Shown: one piece after another, positions 21,242-37,173 of the stretch
Numbering within the stretch: position 1 is the stretch's first letter
How the letters are laid out: every line of letters starts with the position of its first letter
IMG/VR virus record: IMGVR_UViG_3300034061_002899
Length of the DNA: 64,000 nt
Strand: one strand, 5' to 3'
DNA from: a virus
The notes under the pieces: generated by a model
Told to the model about the DNA's origin: nothing
The model's database searches: none
Seen by the model: only the letters and a program-made list of their open reading frames with translations
Position numbers and translations under genes: made by a program

Positions 21242-21244
21242 TAA

Positions 21245-21508: not shown

Positions 21509-21509
21509 T

Positions 21510-21972: not shown

Positions 21973-22051
21973 AGTATAATTCTTTGTAGTCCGTATACTA
22001 TTTATGCAAACGCTCTACATTTTGATATTTACCTACACCCCCAATATTCTT

Positions 22052-22128: not shown

Positions 22129-22188
22129 ATTCATTTCAATACGTATTGTAACAGAGAACTATTTATCTGTCTACTGTTTTGGATAACT

Positions 22189-22262
22189 TGGAGCGGGGTA
22201 ACAGAATCGAACTGTCCGCATCAGATTGGAAATCTGAGGTATTACCACTATACGAACCCCGC
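22189..22262 (-). tRNA. tRNA-Gly(TCC)
   Basis: Cloverleaf, TCC anticodon, CCA. Confidence 0.95.
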
Positions 22263-23030
22263 TTATATATATTTTCTTTCACTTAACCAGGGCACAATAA
22301 CCTCATCAACAAATTCTTTATGCATCTCTGTTGTGGGGTGATGTGGACCTGTAAGAATATTCCATTCTTCAGGATTAGACTCTGCGTATTTTGAATTTTT
22401 TGATATCCAATTATACTGACTAGTTATAGGAAGATACTGCTCTGTATCAATTTGTTTATATAAGTAATCTATTTCAGGATGTGTTATATTTTCAGGCAGA
22501 ACAATATTATCGTCCATATAATTAGTAAAAAAATATTTAATATTTTTTGATTTTAGAAACCATTGTGTTTTCAATATATGCTCAATCGAATATATACTTG
22601 ATCCTATTTCATCATGGAACATTTTATAATATGTCATCGCTTCTTTATTATTTTCTGCCCAATTGGTATTAAGTATTACCCAATTTTTTGTACTATCTTT
22701 TACAAAACCAGTTGGATTTTCCATCCATCCATTATGTACTTTATCAGATACAAAATGTAATAAACCAGGTGATGTACATCTAAAGTCATGTCTATTAGAA
22801 CCACTCCACATAACACCTACTAGTATATCTTCTGGTTTATGTGTCTTTAGTGCTTCTAGTACACCATATATTATACTTCTACTTATAAGTCCGTTACCCT
22901 GACTACCCATTGCATAACTCTTATGATCATAGTCAGTTAATTCTTTAGATAAATGTATAGGCCACGCTTTATTTGCATAACTAATACATTCACTAAAACT
23001 ACAACCTGAGGTGATTAATAATTTTTTCAT
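22263..23030 (-). CDS. SGNH hydrolase-like protein
   Basis: GCSFS, GN..I, MWSG..R, HP...H motifs. Confidence 0.65.
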   Translation of the reverse strand: MKKLLITSGCSFSECISYANKAWPIHLSKELTDYDHKSYAMGSQGNGLISRSIIYGVLEALKTHKPEDILVGVMWSGSNRHDFRCTSPGLLHFVSDKVHNGWMENPTGFVKDSTKNWVILNTNWAENNKEAMTYYKMFHDEIGSSIYSIEHILKTQWFLKSKNIKYFFTNYMDDNIVLPENITHPEIDYLYKQIDTEQYLPITSQYNWISKNSKYAESNPEEWNILTGPHHPTTEMHKEFVDEVIVPWLSERKYI

Positions 23031-23040
23031 AAATATACTT

Positions 23041-23208
23041 ATGCACATTTACGATGCTATTACAAATTCCGGATTACACATCCATCTTTCAATGATGGAA
23101 GATGAATCCTTTTACATTATGGTACATGATCTTGTGAACTTCACTATGCAAATGAAGTTCTTTAGTAGCGTTGAGCCTGCTAGAGCATTTATTCAATCAC
23201 TAGAATAA
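23041..23208 (+). CDS. Small hypothetical protein
   Basis: ATG 23041 just after TAAATA; 55 aa. Confidence 0.5.
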   Translation: MHIYDAITNSGLHIHLSMMEDESFYIMVHDLVNFTMQMKFFSSVEPARAFIQSLE

Positions 23209-23210
23209 TT

Positions 23211-23284
23211 TGGCATCCCCCCAAGGATTCGAACCTTGACTAACGGTTTTGGAGACCGGTATGCTGCCATTACATTAGGGAGAT
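23211..23284 (-). tRNA. tRNA-Trp(CCA)
   Basis: Cloverleaf, CTCCAAA loop, G73 CCA. Confidence 0.9.
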
Positions 23285-23815
23285 ATTTAATTCTTTTAAT
23301 TTGTCTAAGTAATGTGATTGACCTTTACTGACCATTGAACGCCAGTCATTTAGTGAATCATCATTGGCTCCGTCACTAACAAACTTGTAACATAGAAACT
23401 CTACTTTATGTTTCCTGCATACTTTCGCAATAGCGTATGCTTCCATATCTACTACATCAGCAGGAATTAATAAGTTACTATCTGTGACAAAGTTATCACC
23501 TGTACTACAAGTTAATCCATCACCATTATCAATGATGATAGTATCTTCAAATGGTGTTTGACCTGGTAGACTACCTAACTCACAGCACATCATATCACGT
23601 TGAATAAACTTTGACACTTGATGGAATCCTGACTTAACAGTAACTCCACCTGCTGTACCAAAGTTGATAACACGATCAGGGTTGTACTTGGCAATCAACT
23701 CAGCCGCAGTCATTGCGGCATTTACTTTTCCTACACCTGTGTAAAATACTTTCATACTGAAAGCCATGTCAGGTGCTTCTTCTTTCAATGCAATTAATAT
23801 TAAATCTTTTTTCAT
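23270..23815 (-). CDS. mtnN: 5'-methylthioadenosine/S-adenosylhomocysteine nucleosidase-like protein
   Basis: GVGKVNAA, INFGTAG, TGD.F, DMEAYAIA, SD.A motifs. Confidence 0.8.
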   Translation of the reverse strand: MKKDLILIALKEEAPDMAFSMKVFYTGVGKVNAAMTAAELIAKYNPDRVINFGTAGGVTVKSGFHQVSKFIQRDMMCCELGSLPGQTPFEDTIIIDNGDGLTCSTGDNFVTDSNLLIPADVVDMEAYAIAKVCRKHKVEFLCYKFVSDGANDDSLNDWRSMVSKGQSHYLDKLKELNISLM

Positions 23816-23824
23816 AAATTCTCT

Positions 23825-23916
23825 TGGTGGAAACGGTGAGATTCGAACTCACGGGACGCATTAACATCCGACAGTTTTCAAGACTGTTGCAATAAACCGG
23901 GCTCTGCCACGCTTCC
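23825..23916 (-). tRNA. tRNA-Ser(TGA)
   Basis: Long variable arm, CTTGAAA loop, CCA. Confidence 0.95.
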
Positions 23917-24104
23917 TATTTTATTAGTATATCTACGTTTTGACCTTTAGCGGCAGGTTCTATTTTTCCTGTATTGTCGTAAAGGTATTGTATGACTTCT
24001 AAAACTGTTTTATTTGTCTTAGGATCTACTAGAGTACGATACTCGGTGTTGCGATATTGGTTATAAACCATATCCCAACTGTTTGTTATACTTTGTACTA
24101 TCAT
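23916..24104 (-). CDS. Hypothetical protein
   Basis: 62 aa, TAAATA just upstream. Confidence 0.55.
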   Translation of the reverse strand: MIVQSITNSWDMVYNQYRNTEYRTLVDPKTNKTVLEVIQYLYDNTGKIEPAAKGQNVDILIK

Positions 24105-24118
24105 ATAGTATTTATTAT

Positions 24119-24211
24119 ACCATATAGAAACACACTTTTAAACCTTTCTTCAGCGTTTAGTCGCTATCTCCCTTACTAATCGGGCGTAGGGTAAATGTGT
24201 TTTTATATGGT
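24119..24211 (-). ncRNA. Long-stem hairpin element B
   Basis: ACCATATAAAAACACA / TGTGTTTCTATATGGT arms enclosing two small hairpins; begins at the tRNA-Lys ACCA. Confidence 0.55.
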
Positions 24212-24281
24212 AGGAGTGTTCGGGAACGATCCGAATTTTACCGGTTAAAAGCCGGTTACTTCACCTTAAAGTTTCACTCCC
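24208..24281 (-). tRNA. tRNA-Lys(TTT), atypical T-loop
   Basis: CTTTTAA loop, acceptor stem and CCA intact; T-loop ATCGTTC instead of TTCGAAT. Confidence 0.75.
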
Positions 24282-24341
24282 ATAAGTCGTAATGATTGAT
24301 TTTACGTGCCAATCATAGACCTACGGAAGTCTATGATGACA

Positions 24342-24362
24342 CTATCGCTTACTGCGTTTCAT
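24342..24362 (-). other. Minigene MKRSKR with strong SD, followed by a hairpin
   Basis: AAAGGAAACGAC-ATG AAA CGC AGT AAG CGA TAG, then TCATAGAC/GTCTATGA hairpin. Confidence 0.45.
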
Positions 24363-24385
24363 GTCGTTTCCTTTGTTAAAAAATT

Positions 24386-24461
24386 TGGAGTGGGTGACAG
24401 GGGTCGAACCTGCATGTCACGGATTTGCAATCCGCTACCTAACCATTCAGTACACACCCAC
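24386..24461 (-). tRNA. tRNA-Cys(GCA)
   Basis: TTGCAAA loop, U73, CCA. Confidence 0.92.
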
Positions 24462-24470
24462 ATATTGCTC

Positions 24471-24666
24471 TGGCATCCCCCGGCGGTAATTATAGAGTAT
24501 CAAGACATGACGCTATCATACCCATCACACACTCCTTCCACCCGCTTCCCGAAACAGGGACCGTTCTCGCATTGCCAGCGGCCTTTGGGTTTAAAGACTA
24601 CCACCCGTAGCTGTCACGCTACTTCTCATCCTGTGGGTCACAGTATCCGGAGACACCCGGAACGTT
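24471..24666 (-). ncRNA. Unassigned GC-rich structured RNA
   Basis: GC-rich island with several hairpins; 3' end GGGGGATGCCA is identical to the tRNA-Trp 3' end. Confidence 0.5.
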
Positions 24667-24682
24667 CTTTTATAAATACAGT

Positions 24683-24865
24683 ATGGATATCCAAGACTGC
24701 ATTGATATAGTTGAAAAGTTGTTGCGTCAAAACAACCGTAATTATAAGGATAGCCACGAACAATTATTATATGAACGAGGTTACCTTACTGGTATGCTTG
24801 CTCGGATGATGATTGAAAATCCTATGTTTCGCAATGAAATCATAGACCGAGCAAAAAAGAAATGA
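24683..24865 (+). CDS. Hypothetical protein
   Basis: TATAAATA just upstream; helical 60-aa ORF. Confidence 0.6.
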   Translation: MDIQDCIDIVEKLLRQNNRNYKDSHEQLLYERGYLTGMLARMMIENPMFRNEIIDRAKKK

Positions 24866-24866
24866 T

Positions 24867-24954
24867 TGGTGGAGAGTGTGGGATTCGAACCCACGCACCC
24901 ATTGCTGGATGACAGATTAGCAATCTGTTGGTTTAACCACTCACCCAACTCTCC
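24867..24954 (-). tRNA. tRNA-Ser(GCT)
   Basis: Long variable arm, GCT anticodon, CCA. Confidence 0.95.
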
Positions 24955-24960
24955 TATACA

Positions 24961-25037
24961 TGGTGCCTCCGACAGGACTCGAACCTGTAACCAATGGATT
25001 ATGAGTCCACTGCTCTAACCAATTGAGCTACCGAGGC
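24961..25037 (-). tRNA. tRNA-CAT (Met or Ile2)
   Basis: Cloverleaf, CTCATAA loop, CCA; Met versus lysidine-Ile cannot be decided by eye. Confidence 0.9.
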
Positions 25038-25044
25038 GCTATTT

Positions 25045-25449
25045 TTAATTATTTCTTAAAACTTGTTCTCGCCTTTCTTTGACGATTTCATTTCTTTTAC
25101 TAACATCTTTTATTTTTTGTATATCCAAACAATCTCTAATACAATCGTCAGGTAATGCCATATTTTTTCTAACAAGTTTAGCAACTTCTAATTCATTTGG
25201 TAATAACCCGCGAAGGCCGTTAAAGGGTCTTTTCCACATTCCGTTATCTACTGCATGACAGGTTATACATGTATGATCGGGCATTGAAGGTCGCATGTCT
25301 CTAGCTAAATGATTACCTGTTAACTTAGAGCATACATAGTTATCTGTTACTGTGGGGTATTCTATACCACAACTATTAGTTGAGATTGGTTTTAATGTTG
25401 AACACCCGGTAAGTAAAAGAAACATTAATACTAAGCCTATTTTTTTCAT
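25045..25449 (-). CDS. Lipoprotein with CxxCH (putative c-type heme) motif
   Basis: Lipobox LTGC; CITCH. Confidence 0.6.
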   Translation of the reverse strand: MKKIGLVLMFLLLTGCSTLKPISTNSCGIEYPTVTDNYVCSKLTGNHLARDMRPSMPDHTCITCHAVDNGMWKRPFNGLRGLLPNELEVAKLVRKNMALPDDCIRDCLDIQKIKDVSKRNEIVKERREQVLRNN

Positions 25450-25485
25450 GTATCACCCTTTATATGGACAGAGAACTTAAAAATT

Positions 25486-25571
25486 TGGTGCGACTGGCCG
25501 GAATCGAACCGGCACGCTGTTACGGCGAGAGATTTTAAGTCTCTTGTGTCTACCTATTTCACCACAGTCGC
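25486..25571 (-). tRNA. tRNA-Leu(TAA)
   Basis: Long variable arm, TAA anticodon, CCA. Confidence 0.95.
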
Positions 25572-25619
25572 AAATCTTGTTATCATTATATATCATACAA
25601 TGATTGTAGTCAAATATTA

Positions 25620-25696
25620 TGGCGCACCGTAGGGGACTCGAACCCCTGGCCTCATGCGTGACAGGCATGCGATCTAACCAACTGATCTAACGGTGC
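25620..25696 (-). tRNA. tRNA-Asp(GTC)
   Basis: Cloverleaf, GTC anticodon, G73 CCA. Confidence 0.95.
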
Positions 25697-25768
25697 AAAA
25701 TCTGTGATAGTTTCTATACAACCCATTGAAACTAACAAACATTGAGTATATTGCTACACTATTTGTCT

Positions 25769-25852
25769 TGGTGGAGACGGTTGGAGTTGAACCAACAGTG
25801 CCGAAGCGGAAGATTTACAGTCTCCTGGGGTTACCAATTTTCCTACATCTCC
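25769..25852 (-). tRNA. tRNA-Tyr(GTA)
   Basis: GTA anticodon, variable arm, CCA. Confidence 0.93.
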
Positions 25853-25860
25853 AAAATTAG

Positions 25861-26057
25861 TATAAGCTACTTGTTTCCACACAAGCCCTTAATTGAGCGG
25901 TTACTCTGTCCATCTCATTTATTCAAAGTCTGTGTGCAGTGAGAATCTGCCTATCAGAGCCTGCGAGGGTATTTTTAATCCTCACGCTAACGGTTTTCTG
26001 CCACCGGATCTCTATCATTAATCAAACGCTATTTTAACGAAAATAGTAACGGGATAC
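25861..26057 (-). ncRNA. Unassigned structured RNA, copy 2
   Basis: No ORF; multiple hairpins; paralogous 3' core with 21314-21508. Confidence 0.55.
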
Positions 26058-26133
26058 TGGAGCTCGGTACGGGATTCGAACCCGTGTGAATGCCGTGAAA
26101 GGGCACTATCCTAGGCCACTAGATGAACCGAGC
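26058..26133 (-). tRNA. tRNA-Glu(TTC)
   Basis: Cloverleaf, TTC anticodon, CCA. Confidence 0.93.
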
Positions 26134-26137
26134 ATTA

Positions 26138-26265
26138 TGTTATTAGTTTTGCTGACGCACTATTTGCTATGTCTCAACGGAATTGGTGGCCACACTACCG
26201 TTTATCGTCATAGTTACGTAGGGTTGACGTTTACCCAAGGGCTTACATCAGCAAAACTAATAACA
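26138..26265 (-). ncRNA. Long-stem structured element C
   Basis: Perfect 18-bp arms TGTTATTAGTTTTGCTGA / TCAGCAAAACTAATAACA around a ~90-nt structured core. Confidence 0.6.
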
Positions 26266-26267
26266 CA

Positions 26268-26480
26268 CTATATGAAAACACACTATGGGAACTACTAAAC
26301 AAATAGTCAGTACCGTCTACTGATTCAATGTCATTCGTCATTACTGCCTAACTGCCCGTCACGTTCGTAACTTTCGTTATCATACGCTTCTTGTACTCTA
26401 TGCGAAGCCAGTCCGTCAACTGGTTATGCTTCCATAGAGTACCTAACGGATCAGGTAACCCTTAATATGTTTACATATAG
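26268..26480 (-). ncRNA. Long-stem multibranch element D
   Basis: CTATATGTAAACAT / GTGTTTTCATATAG closing stem; internal GTACTCTATG/CATAGAGTAC, GAAA tetraloop and TCAGTA/TACTGA stems. Confidence 0.6.
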
Positions 26481-26514
26481 AGCCCTGAACTTAACAGGGA
26501 TATATGAATTCTAA

Positions 26515-26526
26515 ATTTTAAAGAAC
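26515..26526 (-). promoter_or_regulatory. boxA-like antitermination site
   Basis: GTTCTTTAAAAT about 35 nt downstream of a promoter, resembling rrn boxA (TGCTCTTTAACA). Confidence 0.5.
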
Positions 26527-26566
26527 TTTGTTGAAATGTCTGATGACTTTCTCAACTCATGCTATG

Positions 26567-26595
26567 ATTGTATCATAACTTCCATTTGTTGTCAA
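26567..26595 (-). promoter_or_regulatory. Sigma70 promoter inside the tRNA array
   Basis: TTGACA-17 bp-TACAAT. Confidence 0.7.
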
Positions 26596-26648
26596 ATTCT
26601 TTTTTGTGTCTCTGTTTCCAAGAACTTGTTCAATCAATCTATAACTAG

Positions 26649-26677
26649 AGTATAGCACTAAACTGATTTATTGTCAA
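26649..26677 (-). promoter_or_regulatory. Sigma70 promoter inside the tRNA array
   Basis: TTGACA-ataaatcagtttagtgc-TATACT. Confidence 0.75.
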
Positions 26678-26681
26678 ATTT

Positions 26682-26756
26682 TGGTCCGGGGTACAGGAAT
26701 CGAACCTGTATTGACTGCTTAGAAGGCAGCTGTATTATCCATTATACTAACCCCAG
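26682..26756 (-). tRNA. tRNA-Arg(TCT)
   Basis: Cloverleaf, TCT anticodon, CCA. Confidence 0.93.
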
Positions 26757-26777
26757 ATAAATGTCTAACTTGCCTCT

Positions 26778-26806
26778 ATTATAGCAGAGAATTGATTTAT
26801 TGTCAA
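26778..26806 (-). promoter_or_regulatory. Sigma70 promoter for tRNA-Arg(TCT)
   Basis: TTGACA-ataaatcaattctctgc-TATAAT. Confidence 0.8.
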
Positions 26807-26827
26807 GTGTGACAATAACTATTTGAT

Positions 26828-26903
26828 TGGCTCCCCGACCTGGGCTCGAACCAGGGACCTACGGATTAACAGTCCGGTGCTCTACCAACTGAGCTATCGA
26901 GGA
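26828..26903 (-). tRNA. tRNA-Asn(GTT)
   Basis: Cloverleaf, GTT anticodon, CCA. Confidence 0.95.
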
Positions 26904-26908
26904 ATATT

Positions 26909-26983
26909 TGGTGCCCCAGGTTAGAATCGAACTAACTACCTACCGCTTACAAGGCGGGTGCTCTACCAGTGAGCTACAAGGGC
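26909..26983 (-). tRNA. tRNA-Thr(TGT)
   Basis: Cloverleaf, TGT anticodon, CCA. Confidence 0.95.
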
Positions 26984-27013
26984 TTTTGTCTTACGACTTG
27001 TTTATTTAACAGT

Positions 27014-27042
27014 ATTGTATCATAGGAAAACTTTTTTGTCAA
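27014..27042 (-). promoter_or_regulatory. Sigma70 promoter
   Basis: TTGACA-17 bp-TACAAT. Confidence 0.65.
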
Positions 27043-27043
27043 C

Positions 27044-27604
27044 CTATGATAATAATATTCTACTGTGTTTGGGAACACCGGCAAGCAAGTATTCCATTTG
27101 GTCTGCAAGAATAGTTCTATGTTGTAATATCATATTCTCGTAATGATTAGGTACGTAAGGTGCATAAATTAATTCCATACGTGCTTCTTTCAATGTCTTG
27201 TGACCTTTCTTGCTGTTACAATCTTTACAAGCTGTAACAACGTTCATCCAGGTGTTCTCACCACCTTTACTCTTTGGATGAATATGATCTCTACTTAGTA
27301 AGTGAAAGTTAGGAAAGTGTTCACCGCAGTAAGCGCATACATGTCTATCACGACCAAATAATGTTTTGTTAGTTAGTGCTACACAAGAATGTTTGTATGG
27401 GTTGAATCCGTGTCCTTTGATAGCAATAATACTAGTAGCTTCCAAGTAACTTAATGTACCGTCTTTTTGTATGCCACCACGATATTTAGCCACAATTTCC
27501 CCCATTGACCATGCTATGGCATCTTTTGCTTTATAGGTAATTGCGTCATCATTTGAGATCCACTGCCGGGGAACTCCTGAGATATCTAGTGCTAGAACAG
27601 CCAT
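27044..27604 (-). CDS. HNH endonuclease
   Basis: RD...CAYCG...DHIHPKSKGG...W.NVVTAC..CN..K; AAGGAG SD before ATG 27604. Confidence 0.9.
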   Translation of the reverse strand: MAVLALDISGVPRQWISNDDAITYKAKDAIAWSMGEIVAKYRGGIQKDGTLSYLEATSIIAIKGHGFNPYKHSCVALTNKTLFGRDRHVCAYCGEHFPNFHLLSRDHIHPKSKGGENTWMNVVTACKDCNSKKGHKTLKEARMELIYAPYVPNHYENMILQHRTILADQMEYLLAGVPKHSRILLS

Positions 27605-27652
27605 GTAAAACTCCTTTTCTGCTATTGTCACTAATTGTATTTAATGCCGTAT

Positions 27653-27727
27653 TGGCGGGTCCTGCAGGAATCGAACCCACATCCCGAAGTTCGAAGCATC
27701 GTATTCTATCCATTGAACTAAGGACCC
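27653..27727 (-). tRNA. tRNA-Arg(TCG)
   Basis: CTTCGAA loop, cloverleaf with one anticodon-stem mismatch, CCA. Confidence 0.88.
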
Positions 27728-27729
27728 AT

Positions 27730-27805
27730 TGGTACCAAGAGTTGGACTCGAACCAACCACACCTAGTGCTTCAAACTAGTGCTCTACCTGATGAGCTATC
27801 TTGGC
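27730..27805 (-). tRNA. tRNA-Phe(GAA)
   Basis: TTGAAGC loop, cloverleaf, CCA. Confidence 0.9.
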
Positions 27806-27812
27806 TTATAAA

Positions 27813-27961
27813 GGTGGGAGCCTAACTATCTTATTGTTAGTAAGCCTCGCTAGATTGTCTCGTATAGGCAAGTTTATACACCCATCAATCATACTATAGT
27901 GTCATCACAGTTAACCCCACGGTGACTAGATTGGCAGGGACTCGAACCTATCGTCTATCCC
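27813..27961 (-). ncRNA. tRNA-like structured RNA candidate
   Basis: 5' GGGA can pair with 3' TCCC-ACC; contains T-loop-like GGTTCGAGTCC near the 5' end; no ORF. Confidence 0.4.
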
Positions 27962-27978
27962 ATAAACTTTGAAAATTA

Positions 27979-28647
27979 TTATTTACTTTTATAAGGCAAC
28001 GTACACCACATGATTACAGCAGTTTTCGATTCTATGCCATTTTTAAGATAGTTATCGCTACAGTGCCATTTATATCGGCTGGCTGCCAACAATGAACCGG
28101 TCTTCCATGGGAAAACGGTTTCAATTGATAAGTATCTCATTTTTTCTCTCAACTCATATGAAAGGTATTTTTCATATGTTTCGTCATCTATAGAATCAAT
28201 GGGGTCTGCTTTTTGAATGTATTCGTCAATATTTTTACTAGTGGTATACCATTCATTAAAAATGACAGTATTAGAATCTACTGTTTCTAATGGAATAACA
28301 ACTGTATATGCACCATAGTGGTCATCATCTATTCCATATTCCCCATATATACCATCTATATGTGTTCGGTATGGAGTATATGATTCTAATATATGCATCC
28401 CACCTATAACTAAATCAGCTCCAAATTCTTTATGCATTTTTTCTCTTAATAACAAATCAGAATTTTTCATCGACGGATTATCTAATATTGACGTAATTTT
28501 ACATTCTAATTCATTTTCGGAATATGTTTCAGATATAGCGTTTGGATCTACGGTAATAGCTTCAAGTAAAATAGATTCAACCTCTGTATTAGATAAAAAA
28601 TTATCTATAACTCTAGTATCAACAATGGGTGGGTTAAGATTAATCAT
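27979..28647 (-). CDS. Dioxygenase-like (2OG-Fe/cupin) protein
   Basis: HID, VIPL, WH.S..K motifs; TATAAATA upstream. Confidence 0.6.
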   Translation of the reverse strand: MINLNPPIVDTRVIDNFLSNTEVESILLEAITVDPNAISETYSENELECKITSILDNPSMKNSDLLLREKMHKEFGADLVIGGMHILESYTPYRTHIDGIYGEYGIDDDHYGAYTVVIPLETVDSNTVIFNEWYTTSKNIDEYIQKADPIDSIDDETYEKYLSYELREKMRYLSIETVFPWKTGSLLAASRYKWHCSDNYLKNGIESKTAVIMWCTLPYKSK

Positions 28648-28670
28648 AATATAACTATTTATATAATGTT

Positions 28671-28748
28671 TGGCACCCCCTCAAGGATTCGAACCTCGGT
28701 GTGTCGGAATCAAAATCCGATGCCTTAGACCAACTTGGCGAAGGGGGT
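28671..28748 (-). tRNA. tRNA-Gln(TTG)
   Basis: Cloverleaf, TTG anticodon, G73 CCA. Confidence 0.92.
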
Positions 28749-28865
28749 ATTTTATCTTTAATAAAGAGACTCCTTGTACACATTACATAAATGTGTCCAT
28801 GCTTCAATTTCTTGTTTATGCTTTTCTACTGATTGATTCCAACTCATTTGAGTCTCCTTAAAATT

Positions 28866-28940
28866 TGGTACCGCCACCTGGACTTGAACCAGGGACCTAC
28901 GCCTTATCAAGGCGGTGCTCTACCACTGAGCTATAGCGGT
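28866..28940 (-). tRNA. tRNA-Ile(GAT)
   Basis: Cloverleaf, GAT anticodon, CCA. Confidence 0.95.
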
Positions 28941-28944
28941 GAAT

Positions 28945-29019
28945 TGGTGGATGTAAGTAGATTTGAACTACTGACCTGCTCCGTATGAAGGAGATGCACT
29001 ACCGCTGTGCTATACATCC
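28945..29019 (-). tRNA. tRNA-CAT (Met elongator or Ile2)
   Basis: TTCATAC loop, cloverleaf, CCA. Confidence 0.9.
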
Positions 29020-29020
29020 A

Positions 29021-29097
29021 TGGGGTGCTTGATGGGATTCGAACCCACGTATATCGGAATCACAATCCGAGGTCTTAACCGCTTGACGACAAGCACC
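29021..29097 (-). tRNA. tRNA-His(GTG)
   Basis: G-1:C73 pair, GTG anticodon, CCA. Confidence 0.95.
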
Positions 29098-29104
29098 ATA
29101 CTAT

Positions 29105-29181
29105 TGGTACGACCTAAGAGAGTTGAACTCCTGACCCCCAAGTTCGTAGCCTGGTGCTCTATCCATCTGAGCTAAGGTCGC
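29105..29181 (-). tRNA. tRNA-Arg(ACG)
   Basis: Cloverleaf, ACG anticodon, CCA; first tRNA of the array. Confidence 0.95.
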
Positions 29182-29253
29182 ATTCTAAAACATACTATGG
29201 CTTAACCTTTCAGGGGTCAGGGTACTGTTTACCCATAGTATGTTTTAGAATGC
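29180..29253 (-). ncRNA. Long-stem hairpin element E
   Basis: Perfect 21-bp inverted repeat GCATTCTAAAACATACTATGG / CCATAGTATGTTTTAGAATGC abutting the tRNA 5' end. Confidence 0.6.
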
Positions 29254-29400
29254 CGTGTATTTCTACACGACATGATAGGGTCGATACCCTATCCAGTAGT
29301 CTTACTTTTTGTGTTACCGCCACAAATTTCATGTGTACTGTCCGCCCATTCTATACATTTTGCGCTGTATTACGGCTCTCGTTGCCTATTCACGCTGTCA
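29254..29400 (-). ncRNA. Unassigned structured RNA candidate
   Basis: Run of hairpins (GATAGGG/CCCTATC, CGTGTA/TACACG, TTTGTG/CACAAA), a GGACAG motif, no ORF. Confidence 0.4.
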
Positions 29401-29568
29401 TCAATCAGTATAAGTTAGTTGGTTAACTTTCTTAGTAGCCTCTTGATAGACTTTAGCACGTTCAAGTTTATTTTCTATCAACCGTGCTACTTGCTCCTTA
29501 GTCAAAACATGATTGCTAAACCAATCTGTCTTGTCTTTAGAAGTTGTGTATTCTATCTGTTCATCCAT
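29401..29568 (-). CDS. Small helical protein (55 aa, not in ORF track), first ORF after the attenuator
   Basis: MDEQIEYTTSKDKTDWFSNHVLTKEQVARLIENKLERAKVYQEATKKVNQLTYTD; its start overlaps a promoter-like sequence. Confidence 0.5.
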   Translation of the reverse strand: MDEQIEYTTSKDKTDWFSNHVLTKEQVARLIENKLERAKVYQEATKKVNQLTYTD

Positions 29569-29591
29569 TTATTGTCAAATCCATTCTGTAT

Positions 29592-29630
29592 AAGTAAAAA
29601 CCCCTGAGACTTTTTAGTTTCCCAGGGGTT
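29592..29630 (-). terminator. Intrinsic terminator of the putative attenuator
   Basis: AACCCCTGGGA...TCTCAGGGGTT 11-bp stem followed by a U-rich tract. Confidence 0.8.
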
Positions 29631-29658
29631 AGATAAATTTAGTTATGATGTTAACTTG

Positions 29659-29796
29659 TTACCTAGTCCCCGGGCCATGTTCATTTGAATCATTGTAGCC
29701 ACGAATACTTGTTGGATATGCTGGTACAAAGGATACACTGGCTGTTGTCTGCCATTGCCCGTTATGCTTCAACATGTTACAAGTTTTATTCATCAT
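29659..29796 (-). CDS. Putative attenuator leader peptide containing all 20 amino acids (45 aa, not in ORF track)
   Basis: MMNKTCNMLKHNGQWQTTASVSFVPAYPTSIRGYNDSNEHGPGTR*; last codons and stop pair with the terminator 5' arm. Confidence 0.7.
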   Translation of the reverse strand: MMNKTCNMLKHNGQWQTTASVSFVPAYPTSIRGYNDSNEHGPGTR

Positions 29797-29872
29797 AGTC
29801 TTTTATTTAGTCCTGGTTTAAAATTAGTGCAAATTACATATGTTTTTTGCACCTTTTCTCAATTCATGCTGA

Positions 29873-29901
29873 AGTATAGCATAGCTAGGAATTGATGTCA
29901 A
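29873..29901 (-). promoter_or_regulatory. Sigma70 promoter upstream of the leader ORF and tRNA array
   Basis: TTGACA-tcaattcctagctatgc-TATACT. Confidence 0.8.
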
Positions 29902-29962
29902 CATTTTTTTAAAGCATGTTGCCCAAAAATTTTGTTTATGATTAGCCCGTATACCCTAGTTA

Positions 29963-30787
29963 TTATTTAAATAAATGATCAAACAGTTTGGCAATTTTTG
30001 TATGACCAAGTAGAGTTGGATGGAAGGAATATGGGTTAATTAGGTCATTTGCAATAAGATGATCTATTCTATTTGTGTCTTTTACCCATTGACTAGTATG
30101 GTAGCCGTCAATATTATTATTGAATTCAGAATCTATTGCAAGTTGACTCATAAGGTCTCTTGATGTTGGATGATCTATAACAAAATTATTGATTTGAGTA
30201 TTGTTCTTATAATTAGATTCTGATCCTTGTTTAAGACCCGGACTATCTAAAGTGTAATCATGATGGTTAAATGAATCGAACCAATAATTTTTTATGCCCA
30301 ACGCATTAAAGAATGAATTCCAATGATTCATTTCCTGTGCCAGTTCAAAGATTTCATGATTATGGTCATATATATTTTTGAGCATGAATTCAGACATGTT
30401 TTTTTCTACAGGACAAGGGTGTTTGTCACTTGACAATAAGAAGTTCGTATAGTCATTATTCATTGAGGAAAACCATTCATTTCTTCCAGTAGAGGTTATC
30501 CCCCACAGTACGATAACTTCACTACCAGATTGTTTGATAGAGTTAAAAGAAGTTCCTGAAAAAAAATTCCTGGCTAGTCTAAATTGTCGTCTATTACTAG
30601 ATCGCCATATTGACATGTTTATATTTTTATACCCATATTGTTCAGCTAGTATGTTTCTGAAACTTAGGGTGTCGGCTACATTTTTATCAAATACGATTTT
30701 TTTAAAATCTACATCAGACATACCAGATGTATAACCAACACCAGCTCCCCATGTCCAACTACATCCCAGTGTTATTAAATATTTCAT
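29963..30787 (-). CDS. SGNH hydrolase-like protein
   Basis: GCSWT.G, SN, WGIT..R, HPT..GH. Confidence 0.65.
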   Translation of the reverse strand: MKYLITLGCSWTWGAGVGYTSGMSDVDFKKIVFDKNVADTLSFRNILAEQYGYKNINMSIWRSSNRRQFRLARNFFSGTSFNSIKQSGSEVIVLWGITSTGRNEWFSSMNNDYTNFLLSSDKHPCPVEKNMSEFMLKNIYDHNHEIFELAQEMNHWNSFFNALGIKNYWFDSFNHHDYTLDSPGLKQGSESNYKNNTQINNFVIDHPTSRDLMSQLAIDSEFNNNIDGYHTSQWVKDTNRIDHLIANDLINPYSFHPTLLGHTKIAKLFDHLFK

Positions 30788-31766
30788 ATTTGAATGTCAT
30801 TTTGTTTTTTAAATCATTAATATACTGTATCGGATTATTCAATACCAGTTGATTTTGTTTTGCATGATAGTTACTTAAAGTATATTTGATAAATTCTTGT
30901 TTGTCAACTTCCAATTGCCCAAAAAGTTTTGTAAATATATGAGTTAACTGGTCTCCGTCATTTAGTCTAATAACATCATATGGTAATATTATACATTCTT
31001 CATCTATAAAATCAGAATAAGGTGCGATTACCTTAAAAGGTTCTTGTTGACCAATTTCATGACCCACATTGGGTAATAATACATGATGACCGACCGTTGG
31101 CAACAACACATAATTAACTACGTCAGGTGTATCCCCTAATAACTTGTAGTATTCAAACATGCGAACCAGGGTAATATAAGTTACTATATCTTGGTAATCA
31201 GGATTGAATCTATCATCTACAATCGTTTTTGCTAACTCTTTATCATCAAATAGTTTAGTAATTTTATATTCAGCATATTCTTTCCATCTATCTAATGCAA
31301 CATTACGTCTGTTTTTGGAAATGGTTGATATCACATTAGGATCTAATATGTTTTTTAATTGTTGTAATATTGTAATTGTTAATTTTTCAGCCAAGGACTC
31401 TTGGGTAACTACTAGTATTTTTGCGTTTGGAAACAGGTGGCGGTAAATTGGGATGTTTGTAAAATCGTGTGTACAGCTTATTATTGGTTTTTTTATATCA
31501 AGTTGGGTGAATTGTTGTTGAACGTCAGAAATTTTAGCTAACCTATTGTGTGCTAATGATAACGGTCGTACAAAAGTAGTACGTGGTAAATTTACTTTAT
31601 TAGATGTAGTATTTGATATTACGTGAAAACTTCCAGTTGAAGAAATGTCTAACTTAGACAAGTTGTTTGACATTAGTTTATCTGTCAATCCTGCTAGAAA
31701 ATTACCACCGGCGCCCGGGTGAAAAACGATAAAATAATGTCTTAAGTTATATACATCGCTCATCAC
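30759..31766 (-). CDS. P-loop/sulfotransferase-like protein
   Basis: N-terminal FHPGAGGNFL resembling a PAPS-binding loop; similar to 37473-38138. Confidence 0.45.
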   Translation of the reverse strand: MMSDVYNLRHYFIVFHPGAGGNFLAGLTDKLMSNNLSKLDISSTGSFHVISNTTSNKVNLPRTTFVRPLSLAHNRLAKISDVQQQFTQLDIKKPIISCTHDFTNIPIYRHLFPNAKILVVTQESLAEKLTITILQQLKNILDPNVISTISKNRRNVALDRWKEYAEYKITKLFDDKELAKTIVDDRFNPDYQDIVTYITLVRMFEYYKLLGDTPDVVNYVLLPTVGHHVLLPNVGHEIGQQEPFKVIAPYSDFIDEECIILPYDVIRLNDGDQLTHIFTKLFGQLEVDKQEFIKYTLSNYHAKQNQLVLNNPIQYINDLKNKMTFKYEIFNNTGM

Positions 31767-31769
31767 ATA

Positions 31770-32087
31770 TTAAACTTCTTCTTCTGAAATTAATTCTTTA
31801 ATAAATCCGTGTTCTTCTTTTTGTCTACGCATGTGAACGAACAATCCTGCAGTGATGATCGGGTCATCTAGATATTCTAGCCAAGATGCTTTATTATCCC
31901 AAAGCATAGTAATAACTCTTTCTAGATTATTTTCAGATAATTCAGAAGTTACAAGTATACATTTATGTGTATCTCTGTAATTGGCTATCCAATAATCTCT
32001 GACTTCACTCGAAATACTTTCATGTCCCATAGATATAAATTCTACTGATTCATTGGGTCTAATGACTTTTTGTTTAATAAGATACAT
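31770..32087 (-). CDS. Dimeric alpha/beta barrel-like small protein
   Basis: RP..SV.F...Y.DT.K.....SE..L....W; similar to the N-terminus of 32107-33030. Confidence 0.5.
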   Translation of the reverse strand: MYLIKQKVIRPNESVEFISMGHESISSEVRDYWIANYRDTHKCILVTSELSENNLERVITMLWDNKASWLEYLDDPIITAGLFVHMRRQKEEHGFIKELISEEEV

Positions 32088-32106
32088 AAGTAATTCCTTA
32101 AATTGA

Positions 32107-33030
32107 TTATATTATATTTATCATAGTTGCAAGGTTTCCTGTTACATCTTTTGTAATATCAGCGTAACCTTCTTTTATAAAGGCTTCAGGATAGTAACTT
32201 TTAATTAAATCTTCTTGATATTTTCCTTGAATTTGACCTTTCCATTGCACTGCGGCACTGGTCATTTCTTCTGGATTTTCCCAACGTTGGAATGCTAAAA
32301 TGACAAAACCATTACCAGTGCTTGCATCTGCATCACCGCCATGGTATGCACCATTAACTAACTTAGTACTAAGTCCTCCCCAAGTGCTACCTGTATTGGT
32401 GGTTGATCCTTCATTTGGTTTCCAATTTCCCCCACCTCCCATTGTCATAGTAATTACTTCCATTCTAGGATGTGAGTGTTTCCAAATATACATGTTTGGA
32501 TACTCAATGTAAAATTCAACTTGATAATTACCCTTTCTGAATAAACAAATAGCTACAGCATCATCACTGCGTATTACATTTGCATTCCACGGAATCATCA
32601 TAGGCATTCTTTGTTCACAATACCAATCTACAAAATCTTCAAGACTGGACCAATCCTCTGGAATTTTAACATCTTTAAAATAATCATCAGCATTGATTGT
32701 TTTCCAAGTTGGTCTAATAAATCCAGCATCAGATGTTGATGATGATGTTATGCCATTCAATTGGTCATATTCTGCACTAATTTTTAAAAAGTTTTCTATA
32801 CAAAACGAGTCGGTGAAGAATTCAGCAAAGGCTTCTTGTGATTCCCATTCTGACGTAGCAGTTATAGTCAACTGATCCTCTGACATTGTTCTCTCAAATC
32901 TTAATAGTTTACCGGTATCTATATAATTTGCTTTTAAATATGATCCGTATTCGGGTCTGACAAGTTTAGTCTGATAAAAGAATGGAATGTCTGCGCTAGG
33001 TCTTGTTTGTGTTTTTACGATTGATATCAT
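32107..33030 (-). CDS. Alpha/beta barrel plus cupin-like fusion protein
   Basis: N-terminal domain like 31770-32087; C-terminal HSHP..E...HGG cupin motif. Confidence 0.55.
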   Translation of the reverse strand: MISIVKTQTRPSADIPFFYQTKLVRPEYGSYLKANYIDTGKLLRFERTMSEDQLTITATSEWESQEAFAEFFTDSFCIENFLKISAEYDQLNGITSSSTSDAGFIRPTWKTINADDYFKDVKIPEDWSSLEDFVDWYCEQRMPMMIPWNANVIRSDDAVAICLFRKGNYQVEFYIEYPNMYIWKHSHPRMEVITMTMGGGGNWKPNEGSTTNTGSTWGGLSTKLVNGAYHGGDADASTGNGFVILAFQRWENPEEMTSAAVQWKGQIQGKYQEDLIKSYYPEAFIKEGYADITKDVTGNLATMINII

Positions 33031-33042
33031 TTTTATTCCTTA

Positions 33043-33960
33043 TTAATAATTACCCAATATTTCTAATTTCAATTGATCGGGCGTTCTGTCTACAGATTGC
33101 CTGTACGGCAATCCGTTATACTTTTTCTGCAAAAAAGATTCAAACTCACTTACAAGTAAATCAGTTTTTTCAAATCCTGTTTGTTTTTTTCTTTCTATCA
33201 GATCAGGGAACGCTTCCCTGTATCCTATAATTTTAGTCGAGTTGAATCCCGTTTTACCGTAATATTTATCGTTCGTTATGTTGGTGAACCATTTAAGTTG
33301 AGTAAACGATATTACTAGTCCAGGAGTCCATTTGAACCATTCAGCAATTCCAGGTCTATTAGTCTCACGTAAATACTTTGACCAACCTATATCATGCTCC
33401 CAACAACGTATAAGCCATGTACCCTCTACGTTGTAATCATCATTTGTTCTAACACCGGTCAAATCGCTTGAACAAATAATAGGTAACCCTTCTACTAAAT
33501 CTGCAAACTTACATTGCGGCAATGCTCTAGGTCTACATATTTGTGCCAACTCTGAGATTTTCTCTGCGTCATTTTCATAAAACTTCTGTAGATTAAAATC
33601 AACAATAGTATAATCTACATTTAACAATGAACAAATAGTAACAGCATAACTTACATCATATATGTTGTAATCATTCTCATACCTAATGATGTATACTTTA
33701 GGATTGGCGCCAATCTTTAAGTAGGATCTCAATACAATTTCACTATCTACTCCACCACTAAAAAGTATACTAGGACGTATGTTAGGATAATGCTCTAATG
33801 TACTTGCTGCCGCGTTTGTCATTTCTTTGCTAAAACTTGATACATACCCATTAAACTTTTCATAATGTGTTTGTAGCTTGTCATTATTTTGTTGTCTACC
33901 AAACTTTGAGCCATCACCATAGCTCCAGCTATACCAATTGTTTTCACTAGTAAAAATCAT
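33043..33960 (-). CDS. PP-loop (asparagine synthase-like) protein
   Basis: FSGGVDSE, R.K.TGFE. Confidence 0.7.
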   Translation of the reverse strand: MIFTSENNWYSWSYGDGSKFGRQQNNDKLQTHYEKFNGYVSSFSKEMTNAAASTLEHYPNIRPSILFSGGVDSEIVLRSYLKIGANPKVYIIRYENDYNIYDVSYAVTICSLLNVDYTIVDFNLQKFYENDAEKISELAQICRPRALPQCKFADLVEGLPIICSSDLTGVRTNDDYNVEGTWLIRCWEHDIGWSKYLRETNRPGIAEWFKWTPGLVISFTQLKWFTNITNDKYYGKTGFNSTKIIGYREAFPDLIERKKQTGFEKTDLLVSEFESFLQKKYNGLPYRQSVDRTPDQLKLEILGNY

Positions 33961-34715
33961 TACGTTTTTATCAATTTAATAATAAGTCCCGCCGGATCAA
34001 ACTCCCACCATTTTCTTCCTATTCGATAGTCACCGGGATATAAATGATGATTGTTATGCCAACCTTCACCAAATGTTAGTAAAGCCCACCACCAAACATT
34101 ATGAGATTGATCTTTACTTTTATCAGCTTGTGTGCCAAATTTAGGATCATGATCGATCCAGTTACTCAATCTAGATGCTACTGTGTTTAAGAACATTGGA
34201 ATCCAGAATAGATATACAGATAACAATGGATCAATCATGTACAATACAAGTACAGTTGCTAACACTATTAGCATGTAGTATTCATGCATAAATCTGTGCA
34301 CAGGATCATTAATGATATCTCTGACTTCCCACTTGTTAAACTTGCTTGTATAGTCTCCTATGATTGCCCCCATTGGGCCAAGTACAACAGGACTATGCGG
34401 GTCGCCGGGCTTGTCTGCAAATTTATGATGAGTTCTATGTACAAAAACCCACCCCACAGAACTACCTGTACATCCCAGATTACCTAGATAACTGAAAAAA
34501 TATTCTAAAGGCTTCGCTAACTTGTAGGATTTATGAGTTAATAATCTATGAAATGTAACAGACACACCTAAGCATGTTATCAAAAAGTAACCAAATATTG
34601 CGGTAAGCCAATAACTCAATCCTGCAGGATTAAAGATTGCCCACATTGTGACAATGCTAGCAATAATCTGCATTAATATAAAAAACCATTCTCTTGGATA
34701 CAAATATTGTTTCAT
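33960..34715 (-). CDS. Fatty acid desaturase (delta-9 type)
   Basis: His boxes HRLLTH, HRTHH, DPHSP, GEGWHNNHH; TM segments. Confidence 0.92.
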   Translation of the reverse strand: MKQYLYPREWFFILMQIIASIVTMWAIFNPAGLSYWLTAIFGYFLITCLGVSVTFHRLLTHKSYKLAKPLEYFFSYLGNLGCTGSSVGWVFVHRTHHKFADKPGDPHSPVVLGPMGAIIGDYTSKFNKWEVRDIINDPVHRFMHEYYMLIVLATVLVLYMIDPLLSVYLFWIPMFLNTVASRLSNWIDHDPKFGTQADKSKDQSHNVWWWALLTFGEGWHNNHHLYPGDYRIGRKWWEFDPAGLIIKLIKT

Positions 34716-35464
34716 TTTCTAATCATCCTAATAAGATATCCAGCAGGATCAATTTCCCACCATTTCATTTGCGTAGTCATAGAAGCAGGATTACCGTGAT
34801 GATTGTTATGCCAAGCATCACCCATTATCAACGGCCACAACAATATGTTGTTACTACTGGTATCTTTTGTCTCGTAGTTTCTATAACCATATGTATGTGC
34901 AAAATAGTTAAAACTATTCTGGCTCATTTGTACTAAAAACACAGGTAGAACCCAAACGAAATACGCTACATCTAGACCAAATATAGCTAACACAGAAACG
35001 AATGCCAAGATTATAGCAAGATAGTAATCGTGTATAAAAATATGCTGTTTGTTCATCAAGTCCTTGACTAAGAATACATTCATCTTTCCTGCTGTAGCTT
35101 CTATGTGTTTGAAGTTAAACAATTTAAATCCAATGTTGCCGGGACCGTGCGGGTCCTTTTCAGTGTCAGAGTGTGCGTGATGCAATCTATGAACATAAAC
35201 CCATCCTAGGATACTGGCTCTACCAGATAGTATTGCAATCAATGTACATATCCATTTCATAAATATAAATCTAAATTCAAATGATTTATGTGCATAGTAT
35301 CTGTGTAACGTTAATCCAACCCCTATAACACTATAAGCATAGAAACTGACTAATAGCAAAACAATGTTTGATAAAGTAAAGTCAAAATAAAACAATCCGG
35401 CAATTGACAATAATCCGGTAATCATTTGAATTTTGGTAATTGTTTGGGCATTAGATGAAAACAT
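34712..35464 (-). CDS. Fatty acid desaturase (delta-9 type)
   Basis: HRYYAH, HRLHH, DPH, WHNNHH. Confidence 0.92.
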   Translation of the reverse strand: MFSSNAQTITKIQMITGLLSIAGLFYFDFTLSNIVLLLVSFYAYSVIGVGLTLHRYYAHKSFEFRFIFMKWICTLIAILSGRASILGWVYVHRLHHAHSDTEKDPHGPGNIGFKLFNFKHIEATAGKMNVFLVKDLMNKQHIFIHDYYLAIILAFVSVLAIFGLDVAYFVWVLPVFLVQMSQNSFNYFAHTYGYRNYETKDTSSNNILLWPLIMGDAWHNNHHGNPASMTTQMKWWEIDPAGYLIRMIRK

Positions 35465-35477
35465 ATAAATATTTATC
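35465..35477. promoter_or_regulatory. Palindromic bidirectional late-promoter-like site
   Basis: ATAAATATTTAT gives TAAATA on both strands between divergent starts 35464 and 35488. Confidence 0.5.
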
Positions 35478-35487
35478 TTATACGAAT

Positions 35488-36093
35488 ATGTTCATGCAAA
35501 TAAAGACCTATAACTCACTAGAGGACAAACAACAGTTTCTTACTTTTTGTAAGGAACAATCATTGTTAGATGACAACCAATCATCAGCAAACATGTGGAG
35601 TGACGATGTGAATAATCATCATACTCTTCCCTACATACTAGAGAATACTAACAGGTTTGATGGGATAAATGGCGAGTTTTTTGTCTTATTTGACGGTGAT
35701 AAAATAGCCGGGTGCGGTGGGGTTTATCTAAGTGATTTCAACAAACACATTGCTTTGGCAGGTGTTAGAACTTGGGTAAGCCAAGATTATCGTCATTTAT
35801 CGCTACACAGAGACTATCTATTAATAGAGCATAAAAAATGGTGTATAGAAAGACACGTTAAATTGATAGCACTATCATTCAATGATTACAACAAAAATAT
35901 CATAGAAATTTTTAAACGAAATCGATTGGGTGAGAAGAACAATAGAATCAATAACAGAGAACCAAAGCATATGTTCTACGCTGGAATAGGAGAAGTTGAA
36001 TTTCCTGTAATGATCCAATACACTCCTCAATGGGTTATATATGAAAATCTTGACAAAGATTTTTTATTTGATTGGACTACTATCAAATGTTAA
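35488..36093 (+). CDS. GNAT acetyltransferase-like protein
   Basis: F.VL.DGDKIAG.GG...R.WV..DYR motif. Confidence 0.6.
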   Translation: MFMQIKTYNSLEDKQQFLTFCKEQSLLDDNQSSANMWSDDVNNHHTLPYILENTNRFDGINGEFFVLFDGDKIAGCGGVYLSDFNKHIALAGVRTWVSQDYRHLSLHRDYLLIEHKKWCIERHVKLIALSFNDYNKNIIEIFKRNRLGEKNNRINNREPKHMFYAGIGEVEFPVMIQYTPQWVIYENLDKDFLFDWTTIKC

Positions 36094-36581
36094 ACGACTA
36101 TTTTTTAAATTTAAATTACTCACCTAAACACCTGCTATCTATAATGTATGATGAAGCCTCACGTTCTGATAATTATTACTTAAGTCCGGTTAATGTGTTA
36201 AGATGTGATGTTAGTACATATTTGAGTACAGAATTATCTAAAGTTATAAATGCACCGTTTACGTGTTGTGGTTTTTTAAAAACGTTACCATTAACTGTAT
36301 ATCCTACTCATACTGATAAGTTTAGAATTGCAGCCATTAATATGCCTTTATTTGAAGAAACACCAGGATTTGATTCTAGTATGTTTACTGGAAAAAAGAT
36401 GGAAGCAATTGTATACAAAACAAATTATTTTACTATGTTGAATGTGACTAAACCGCATTATGTAAGAAATGAAAATCCTGATAGTGAACGTATAATGTTA
36501 TCTATTGGATTTAAAAATAATAGATACAATGATTTAAAAGAAATGCATCATAAAAAGGAATTAATTAATGATACATTATAA
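36087..36581 (+). CDS. Dioxygenase-like (cupin/2OG-Fe) protein
   Basis: HTD..R..AIN.P...PH.V.N...R..LSI. Confidence 0.6.
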   Translation: MLNDYFLNLNYSPKHLLSIMYDEASRSDNYYLSPVNVLRCDVSTYLSTELSKVINAPFTCCGFLKTLPLTVYPTHTDKFRIAAINMPLFEETPGFDSSMFTGKKMEAIVYKTNYFTMLNVTKPHYVRNENPDSERIMLSIGFKNNRYNDLKEMHHKKELINDTL

Positions 36582-37137: not shown

Positions 37138-37173
37138 CCACTTCTATGTTATATATTCAATAAAAAGTGTAAA

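Follow-up and report, generated by a model that had tools for sequence, protein, structure and literature searches.

A candidate attenuator with an all-20-amino-acid leader peptide at the head of a phage tRNA region

How a phage might control the transcription of its own tRNA genes is the question raised by the locus described here. Large phages often carry tRNA arrays, which current work ties to codon usage and to the evasion of host defences that cleave tRNAs, and the control of these arrays is largely unknown. The window, i.e., the whole 64,000-nucleotide (nt) stretch of an uncultured freshwater phage that was analysed (IMG/VR virus record IMGVR_UViG_3300034061_002899), holds a promoter, a 45-codon open reading frame (ORF), two competing RNA hairpins and, downstream of them, a set of tRNA genes. 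A first interpretation made from the sequence alone, referred to below as the sequence-only reading, had taken the short ORF for a leader peptide that senses the supply of all tRNAs and thereby gates the array. As far as comparison with its relatives can tell, the element is very probably a transcription attenuator that depends on ribosomes translating a leader peptide and that stands at the head of the phage tRNA region. That its composition of all 20 amino acids serves to sense a shortage of nearly any charged tRNA is a bolder proposal, which reaches at most an even call.

All elements of the switch lie on the minus strand (Table 1). Along this strand, the promoter P1 is followed by a hairpin in the 5' untranslated region (UTR), the initiation region CAGGACUAAAUAAAAGACU, the 45-codon leader ORF, a 28-nt spacer and the terminator. 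Past the terminator come a second promoter (P2), a second small ORF (ORF2) and then 26 tRNA genes running from 29181 downward. Scanning, translation and folding bore out the promoter, the ORF containing all 20 amino acids, the terminator and the alternative hairpin described in the sequence-only reading. P1 matches the consensus at 11 of 12 positions (consensus scan), and both its TTGACA and its TATACT are retained in most of the aligned homologs.

The heart of the switch is the overlap between two hairpins. The terminator is an 11-base-pair stem of -16.7 to -17.0 kcal/mol, with arms AACCCCUGGGA and UCUCAGGGGUU followed by five U. The end of the leader ORF, CCCGGGGACUAGGUAA (29674-29659), can form 14 of 16 possible pairs with UUAUCUAACCCCUGGG (29636-29621), as had been claimed and as was found again both by hand and by folding. 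The resulting antiterminator hairpin comprises an outer helix, CCCGGGG:CCCUGGG, whose ORF-side strand corresponds to codons 41-43, and an inner helix, UAGGUAA:UUAUCUA, with the stop codon inside it. Nearly all relatives share this placement; in L094-L097, a clade with long ORFs, the antiterminator strand lies about 10 codons before the stop. The computed energy is -21.6 kcal/mol for the antiterminator hairpin versus -21.3 kcal/mol for the state combining the terminator and the inner hairpin. The two folds are thus predicted to be iso-energetic and exclusive of each other in their outer part, the antiterminator being transcribed first. Indeed, terminator and antiterminator exclude each other because both use 29621-29630. 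The mutual exclusion originally claimed for the two hairpins holds for the outer 7 pairs, to which the competition is limited, and fails for the inner helix, which is compatible with the terminator.

Homologous loci were searched for with an alignment (A1) as seed, a broader alignment (A3) being too gappy. About 170 were recovered, every one of them in uncultured phage contigs (metagenomic and IMG/VR) and mostly from lakes and other freshwater. A search of 185,579 genomes of bacteria or archaea gave no homolog of the leader, and the element thus does not appear to be part of any sequenced prophage. A DNA search with 29150-30000 likewise gave no match among 50,697 phage records, the phage being without close relative among deposited phage genomes. 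The position of the leader at the head of a tRNA array, noted in the window by the first interpretation, recurs throughout the family. Downstream DNA of at least 1 kb is available for 77 distinct loci, and in 75 of these same-strand tRNA genes follow within 1.5 kb, the median distance from the stop codon being 525 nt. The order leader, terminator, ORF2, tRNAs is conserved across relatives.

The geometry of the switch had been predicted to recur in related phages, and it does. A G+C-rich hairpin with a U run follows the ORF in 99 of 100 distinct sequences. When the RNA is folded from the start codon as far as the loop of the terminator, so that the 3' arm is withheld, the 5' arm pairs with the 3' end of the ORF in 99 of 99 cases. 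In the terminator, 98.9% of alignment cells are paired and two pairs show compensatory changes, from C-G to A-U in 15 sequences and from U-A to C-G in 2. For the antiterminator, a plain MAFFT alignment gives 90.4% paired cells versus at most 54% with slid partners, and a covariance-model alignment (A6, 98 distinct sequences) gives 93%; over both alignments, the range is 90-93% versus at most 59% in slid controls. In the covariance-model alignment, 10 of 19 pairs are compensatory, versus 2-4 in slid controls and 3.1 +/- 0.9 in shuffles, counts that lean towards the model to which this alignment was fitted.

The covariation extends over three strands, namely, the ORF end, the 5' arm and the 3' arm of the terminator. 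These read CCCGGGG, CCCCUGGG and CUCAGGGG in the window, and UCUCGGGG, CCCCGAGA and again UCUCGGGG in L085, while in L081 the ORF end CUCGGGG goes with CCCUGAG. The inner helix covaries as well, as in L076 (CGGAAUAA:UUAUUUUG), L079 (CUAUAGAC:GUUUAUA) and L094 (GUUUCAUAG:UAUGAAAC). In the L076 clade, a one-base indel turns the C-terminus PGTR into PRGTE before the stop, with retention of the motif CCCGGGGA and of the in-helix stop codon. This maintenance of motif and stop across a frame shift argues that what is constrained is the RNA and the place of the stop, rather than the residues. Rfam, searched over 29150-29960 at a permissive threshold, returned no family at cut-off, all matches being sub-threshold; the histidine leader His_leader (RF00514) scored 16 bits versus a 49-bit cut-off, with an E-value of 6.3, i.e., at chance level.

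The leader ORF shows several of the marks expected of a translated sequence. It is uninterrupted in 172 of 172 loci, which give 85 distinct peptides of 43-59 amino acids, and homologous ORFs vary in length by whole codons only. The median pairwise ratio of nonsynonymous to synonymous substitution rates (dN/dS) is 0.42, and third codon positions are the most variable. Both features fit a translated ORF whose core is under strong constraint and whose remaining part is constrained only loosely, and the leader is probably translated.

A mechanism can be proposed from these elements. RNA started at P1 would have its 45-codon leader translated while RNA polymerase advances. The last five codons and the stop would form the 5' strand of a hairpin whose 3' strand is the 5' arm of the terminator. 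A ribosome arriving at the leader end in time would hold this 5' strand, so that the terminator would form and the transcript would stop at about 29596. A ribosome delayed earlier in the leader, or never loaded, would let the antiterminator form first, resulting in read-through. The read-through RNA alone would carry the start codon of ORF2, and it would also add to transcription of the array beside P2. The position of ORF2 is telling in this respect. Its AUG lies in the P2 spacer, upstream of P2 transcripts, and ORF2 can therefore be encoded only by P1 read-through RNA. This AUG is found exactly 10 nt past the start of the -35 element in 78 of 83 loci, and the P2 -10 hexamer coincides with ORF2 codons 5-7. 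ORF2 would be the gene most directly under the control of the switch.

The second peculiarity of the locus is the composition of the leader. The peptide contains 20 of 20 amino acids, Glu39 being the last newcomer, and uses 31 distinct codons as counted from the sequence. Among the 70 ATG ORFs of 40-60 amino acids in the window, it is the only one with all 20. Such a composition arises by chance in 45 residues in 0.8% of random draws from the window composition and in 2% of windows taken from long ORFs. Near-complete coverage had been predicted for the relatives, and all 20 amino acids are indeed present in 78 of 85 distinct DNA-derived peptides, the remainder holding 17-19, as well as in 17 of 24 further cluster representatives of less than 50% mutual identity.

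These counts are far above a phylogeny-aware null. With column shuffles of 21 sequences of at most 60% identity, 4.9 +/- 1.8 sequences with all 20 are expected (maximum 11 in 5000) versus 16 observed. Site-independent simulation along an inferred tree, with site-specific profiles and rates and a root holding all 20, gives 21 +/- 8 of 70 (maximum 50 in 3000 runs) versus 61 observed. The ORF2 family, used as a control, fits this tree-based null, with 17.13 observed versus 16.99 +/- 0.23 simulated (P 0.23), whereas the enlarged leader family does not, with 19.84 versus 18.86 +/- 0.29, a value reached in 0 of 2000 runs.

Besides the counts, the way in which coverage is maintained is informative, as sole copies change place and are not lost. 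The sole Phe moves from SFVPAY to GSFDS or GDFNQ (L078, L089, L091), the sole Asp to SIDSL in L087 and L088, the sole Cys to position 17 in P0028, and the sole Lys is relocated in L091, while Val is retained at one of positions 21, 24 and 26. Of 98 coding sequences, all 98 use codons of both Ser boxes, 94 do so for the two Arg boxes and 83 for the two Leu boxes. There are no runs of codons for a sensed amino acid or amino acids in the leader; complete coverage is found instead. Selection would thus keep every amino acid in the leader, usually once or twice, and the all-20 constraint is taken as real on this comparative ground.

The most economical reading is that the leader gauges overall decoding capacity, a shortage of almost any charged tRNA leading to more read-through. 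In its explicit form, the leader would act as a pan-aminoacyl-tRNA gauge, in which tRNA depletion or cleavage slows the ribosome, turns ORF2 on and boosts transcription of replacement tRNAs, with recovery turning it off; this form is tentative and held at somewhat less than even confidence. Every amino acid, as well as both Ser and Arg boxes, would be kept so that depletion of almost any tRNA registers. Starvation, phage-induced shut-off and host anticodon nucleases are possible sources of such depletion; a link to the nucleases PrrC, RloC or PARIS is speculation. Taken as a whole and as stated, the attenuator with its gauging leader is the best explanation of the locus, with slightly better than even confidence.

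Several observations weigh against this explanation and define where it is weakest. The Shine-Dalgarno (SD) sequence of the leader is weak, as already cautioned in the sequence-only reading, with AGGA standing 14 nt before the AUG versus 5-8 nt in the SD-bearing genes of the phage. The claim that a stall at any earlier codon would be sensed does not hold for glutamate. Indeed, a ribosome stalled at Glu39, the sole Glu codon, would itself mask the outer helix, being too near the hairpin for sensing. With the leading edge of the ribosome set at about 12 nt past the A-site codon, all 20 amino acids lie upstream of this masking limit in only 8 of 99 leaders, Glu being the usual exception, in line with an early caveat about this codon. 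In 7 of the 85 peptides, between one and three amino acids are missing. The leader of L085 is without Asp, yet the associated array has two tRNA-Asp genes, which also refutes the idea that the leader mirrors the array, an amino acid missing from one being a tRNA missing from the other; there is no one-to-one match. A clear pause hairpin, or one of the 1:2 type, that would synchronise ribosome and polymerase was not found, and the model-leaning counts of the covariance-model alignment belong here as well. Besides, a pure codon-sampling role leaves the near-invariant PAYPTSIRG core of the peptide unaccounted for. Lastly, the array has its own promoter P2 and internal promoter-like sites, and the attenuator is therefore not its sole gate. 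The first interpretation had listed these downstream promoters as a caveat, rightly so, and its wording of a leader gating the array was too strong.

The PAYPTSIRG core leads to the rival that survives best, in which the locus is an attenuator whose cue is other than the supply of 20 amino acids. The nascent PAYPTSIRG peptide would programme a ribosome pause or arrest, as do SecM, TnaC and erm/vmlR-type leaders. Its cue might be, for instance, a small molecule, a factor of the phage or the host, or an inhibition of translation in general, and full coverage would be secondary. A nascent-chain pause at this motif is possible. Low peptide identity had been predicted among homologs, and this prediction failed for the core, which remains nearly invariant down to 44% overall identity despite synonymous changes in its codons. 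The motif is found 9-21 residues from the C-terminus, and in L094-L097 it roughly keeps its spacing from the antiterminator 5' strand. The evidence for terminator and antiterminator fits this rival equally. What it leaves unexplained is the retention of all 20 amino acids beyond the site-independent null and the relocation of sole copies. Furthermore, the motif matches no described arrest peptide and was not found in the literature, and no cue can be named. The rival is considered unlikely. An RNA-level origin of the motif fared no better: RNAalifold proposes a hairpin over codons 25-33 with which the synonymous changes agree, at only -0.5 kcal/mol.

A second rival, a plain gene for a small phage protein that has a promoter and a terminator of its own, a stop-codon hairpin serving mRNA stability, processing or translation termination, and an all-20 composition that is a by-product of an unusual but functional peptide, accords with the conserved core, a dN/dS below 1, a strong promoter and a good terminator, downstream genes served by P2 and a chance of 1-2% for the composition, but is improbable, as it accounts neither for a terminator 5' arm that covaries with both the ORF 3' end and the 3' arm, nor for a nucleotide motif that survives a change of frame, iso-energetic and mutually exclusive folds, an ORF2 start placed for read-through RNA only or an all-20 retention above the null that the neighbouring small protein family of ORF2 does not show, the peptide moreover belonging to no known family in Pfam or PHROGs. 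Two further ideas were dropped. A -1 frameshift at C CCG GGG would cost the product just one residue. The peptide was also considered as the precursor of a ribosomally synthesized and post-translationally modified peptide, in view of radical-SAM genes upstream in some relatives, and this was abandoned because the upstream island differs completely among relatives, whereas the linkage of the leader with ORF2 and the tRNAs is maintained.

Amino-acid operon attenuators are the best-known systems with which the proposed attenuator can be compared and include trpL, hisL, leuL, thrL, pheL and the multivalent ilvGMEDA leader. Four of the features that define an attenuator in sequence are present in the phage element, namely, a small ORF in the leader, an intrinsic terminator, an antiterminator that covaries and excludes it, and a stop codon in a masking position. 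As in the amino-acid operons (see also PMC1183508), a promoter and a short leader ORF are followed by an intrinsic terminator, and the antiterminator 5' strand would be masked by the terminating ribosome. The element further resembles trp in having its stop codon about 63 nt upstream of the point where the U tract ends, and the predicted default when no ribosome is present is likewise read-through. In contrast to these leaders, it shows no codon runs for one to three amino acids, every amino acid occurring mostly once or twice, and it is followed by a small ORF and tRNA genes instead of biosynthetic enzymes. It also differs in being phage-borne, in its invariant peptide core and in the lack of a clear 1:2 pause hairpin.

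Attenuators that answer to translation in a more general way are known as well. The vmlR leader of B. subtilis is a ribosome-mediated attenuator answering to general translation inhibition (PMC9226507), and yxjB is controlled by a tylosin-induced attenuator (PMC6851288). The phage element shares with vmlR, yxjB and erm-type leaders the alternative terminator and antiterminator, a stall that would lead to read-through and the sensing of translation state, not of one amino acid. However, in those systems, a drug-bound ribosome acts at specific peptide motifs and resistance genes are controlled, whereas nothing points to a drug in the phage, and they have no counterpart of the all-20 constraint or of the tRNA context. 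With SecM, TnaC and MifM, the phage leader has in common a small reading frame that lies upstream of the regulated gene and has, 10-20 residues from its end, a strongly conserved peptide motif. Unlike them, it carries no known arrest motif, and control would pass through an intrinsic terminator and not through Rho access or exposure of an SD sequence. The full-text literature yielded no description of phage tRNA-array attenuation, of an all-20 leader or of the peptide motif. The all-20 leader and the tRNA target would be new relative to known attenuators. The initial claim that no equivalent had been described thus stands for these two features and not for general-translation attenuators, of which vmlR (PMC9226507) is an example.

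Table 1. Positions of the elements of the switch and of the neighbouring tRNA region in the window.
Feature	Position	Strand	Details
Promoter P1	29873-29901	minus	-35 TTGACA 29901-29896, 17-nt spacer, TG-extended -10 TATACT 29878-29873
5' UTR hairpin	29827-29853	minus	GGUGCAAA...UUUGCAC; -9.5 kcal/mol
Translation-initiation region	29797-29815	minus	CAGGACUAAAUAAAAGACU; nearly invariant in alignments; AGGA at 29814-29811
Leader ORF	29659-29796	minus	45 codons and UAA; peptide MMNKTC...PAYPTSIRG...GPGTR
Antiterminator hairpin	29621-29674	minus	Outer helix 29674-29668:29627-29621; inner helix 29665-29659:29636-29630; apical hairpin 29656-29641
Intrinsic terminator	29596-29630	minus	Arms 29630-29620 and 29609-29599, 10-nt loop, U tract 29600-29596
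Promoter P2	29550-29578	minus	TTGACA-17-TAGAAT; between terminator and array, overlaps ORF2 start
ORF2	29401-29568	minus	55 amino acids; AUG 10 nt after start of P2 -35
tRNA array	19359-29181	minus	26 tRNA genes, all 20 amino acids (ARAGORN and Rfam agree); ORFs interspersed
Promoter-like sites in array	26778-26806, 27014-27042, 26649-26677, 26567-26595, 25585-25613	minus	Near-consensus sigma-70
HNH endonuclease gene	27044-27631	minus	Inserted in tRNA array; Pfam HNH_5, E-value 1.7e-17

Between the terminator and the array, P2 is borne out by the relatives. The pattern TTGAC(A/G)-17-TAnAAT is found in 84 of 93 of their distinct downstream regions, and the final T of the -10 element is conserved while the overlapping ORF2 codon varies (Tyr, Ser, Leu, Phe, Cys). 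This comparative evidence argues that P2 is a real promoter. ORF2 itself is predicted to fold as a hairpin of helix, turn and long helix (predicted local distance difference test, pLDDT, of 79), a fold that says nothing about function. Only chance-level matches were obtained for it in Pfam and PHROGs, and a protein atlas gave one sub-threshold lead. Its AUG is also preceded by an AGGA/GGA-like element at 13-14 nt, with an A-rich spacer (29569-29590, minus strand). The long AGGA-AUG spacing of leader and ORF2 may reflect a special initiation mode. In the 5' UTR, the hairpin upstream of the leader shows a C-G to U-A change in L001 and is absent from L003, L025 and L027, and it is not considered essential because it is variable or deleted in several relatives.

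The array had been read as 27 tRNAs covering all 20 amino acids; the coverage stands, and the count becomes 26 with both ARAGORN and Rfam, two of these tRNAs having CAU anticodons. One of the promoter-like sites inside the array is a perfect TTGACA-17-TATAAT, just before tRNA-Arg(tct), which suggests that the array is composed of several transcription units. HNH or NUMOD3 genes are found at similar places in the arrays of relatives. In L179 (G001:C1:4500-15000), the array of L085, a tRNA-Asp with an AUC anticodon, unusual for Asp, is present besides the one with GUC. One divergent clade (L081, L091, L093) is without ORF2 and P2. In these three loci, weak promoter-like sites remain between terminator and array, and a G+C-richer structured stretch, e.g. 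AGUGCAAGUCGGAACGAGGCUGCAAAGCACU, separates the terminator from the first tRNA, tRNA-Gln (L081:1700-1899, L091:1700-1990, L093:1700-1987).

Upstream of the leader, the gene content is of another kind. The island at 29963-38138, like the corresponding flanks of L001-L014, is hypervariable between relatives, with radical-SAM/SPASM enzymes, fatty-acid desaturases, TctC, CMD, AhpC, NifU, ACPS and aldolase, in some cases encoded on the other strand. No relatives of the upstream 274-amino-acid gene were found in viral contigs. The leader is thus the boundary between a variable upstream island and a conserved tRNA region. At 49502-60646 on the minus strand, one ORF of 3714 amino acids is found, which, together with related contigs of 350-525 kb, suggests that the source is a jumbo phage.

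If the proposed reading is true, the locus would be a trp-style attenuator that reads overall decoding capacity and feeds tRNA genes and a small protein of no known family. The evolutionary signal lends it credibility, as the full set of 20 amino acids in a 45-residue peptide has been preserved in more than 100 distinct sequences through relocation of sole copies. The host culture is dispensable for cell-free study because the promoter and the terminator are of standard bacterial type, and a short complete-coverage ORF overlapping an antiterminator provides a rule with which to search for similar sensors. Such an element, if true, would represent a virus-encoded homeostatic control of translation capacity.

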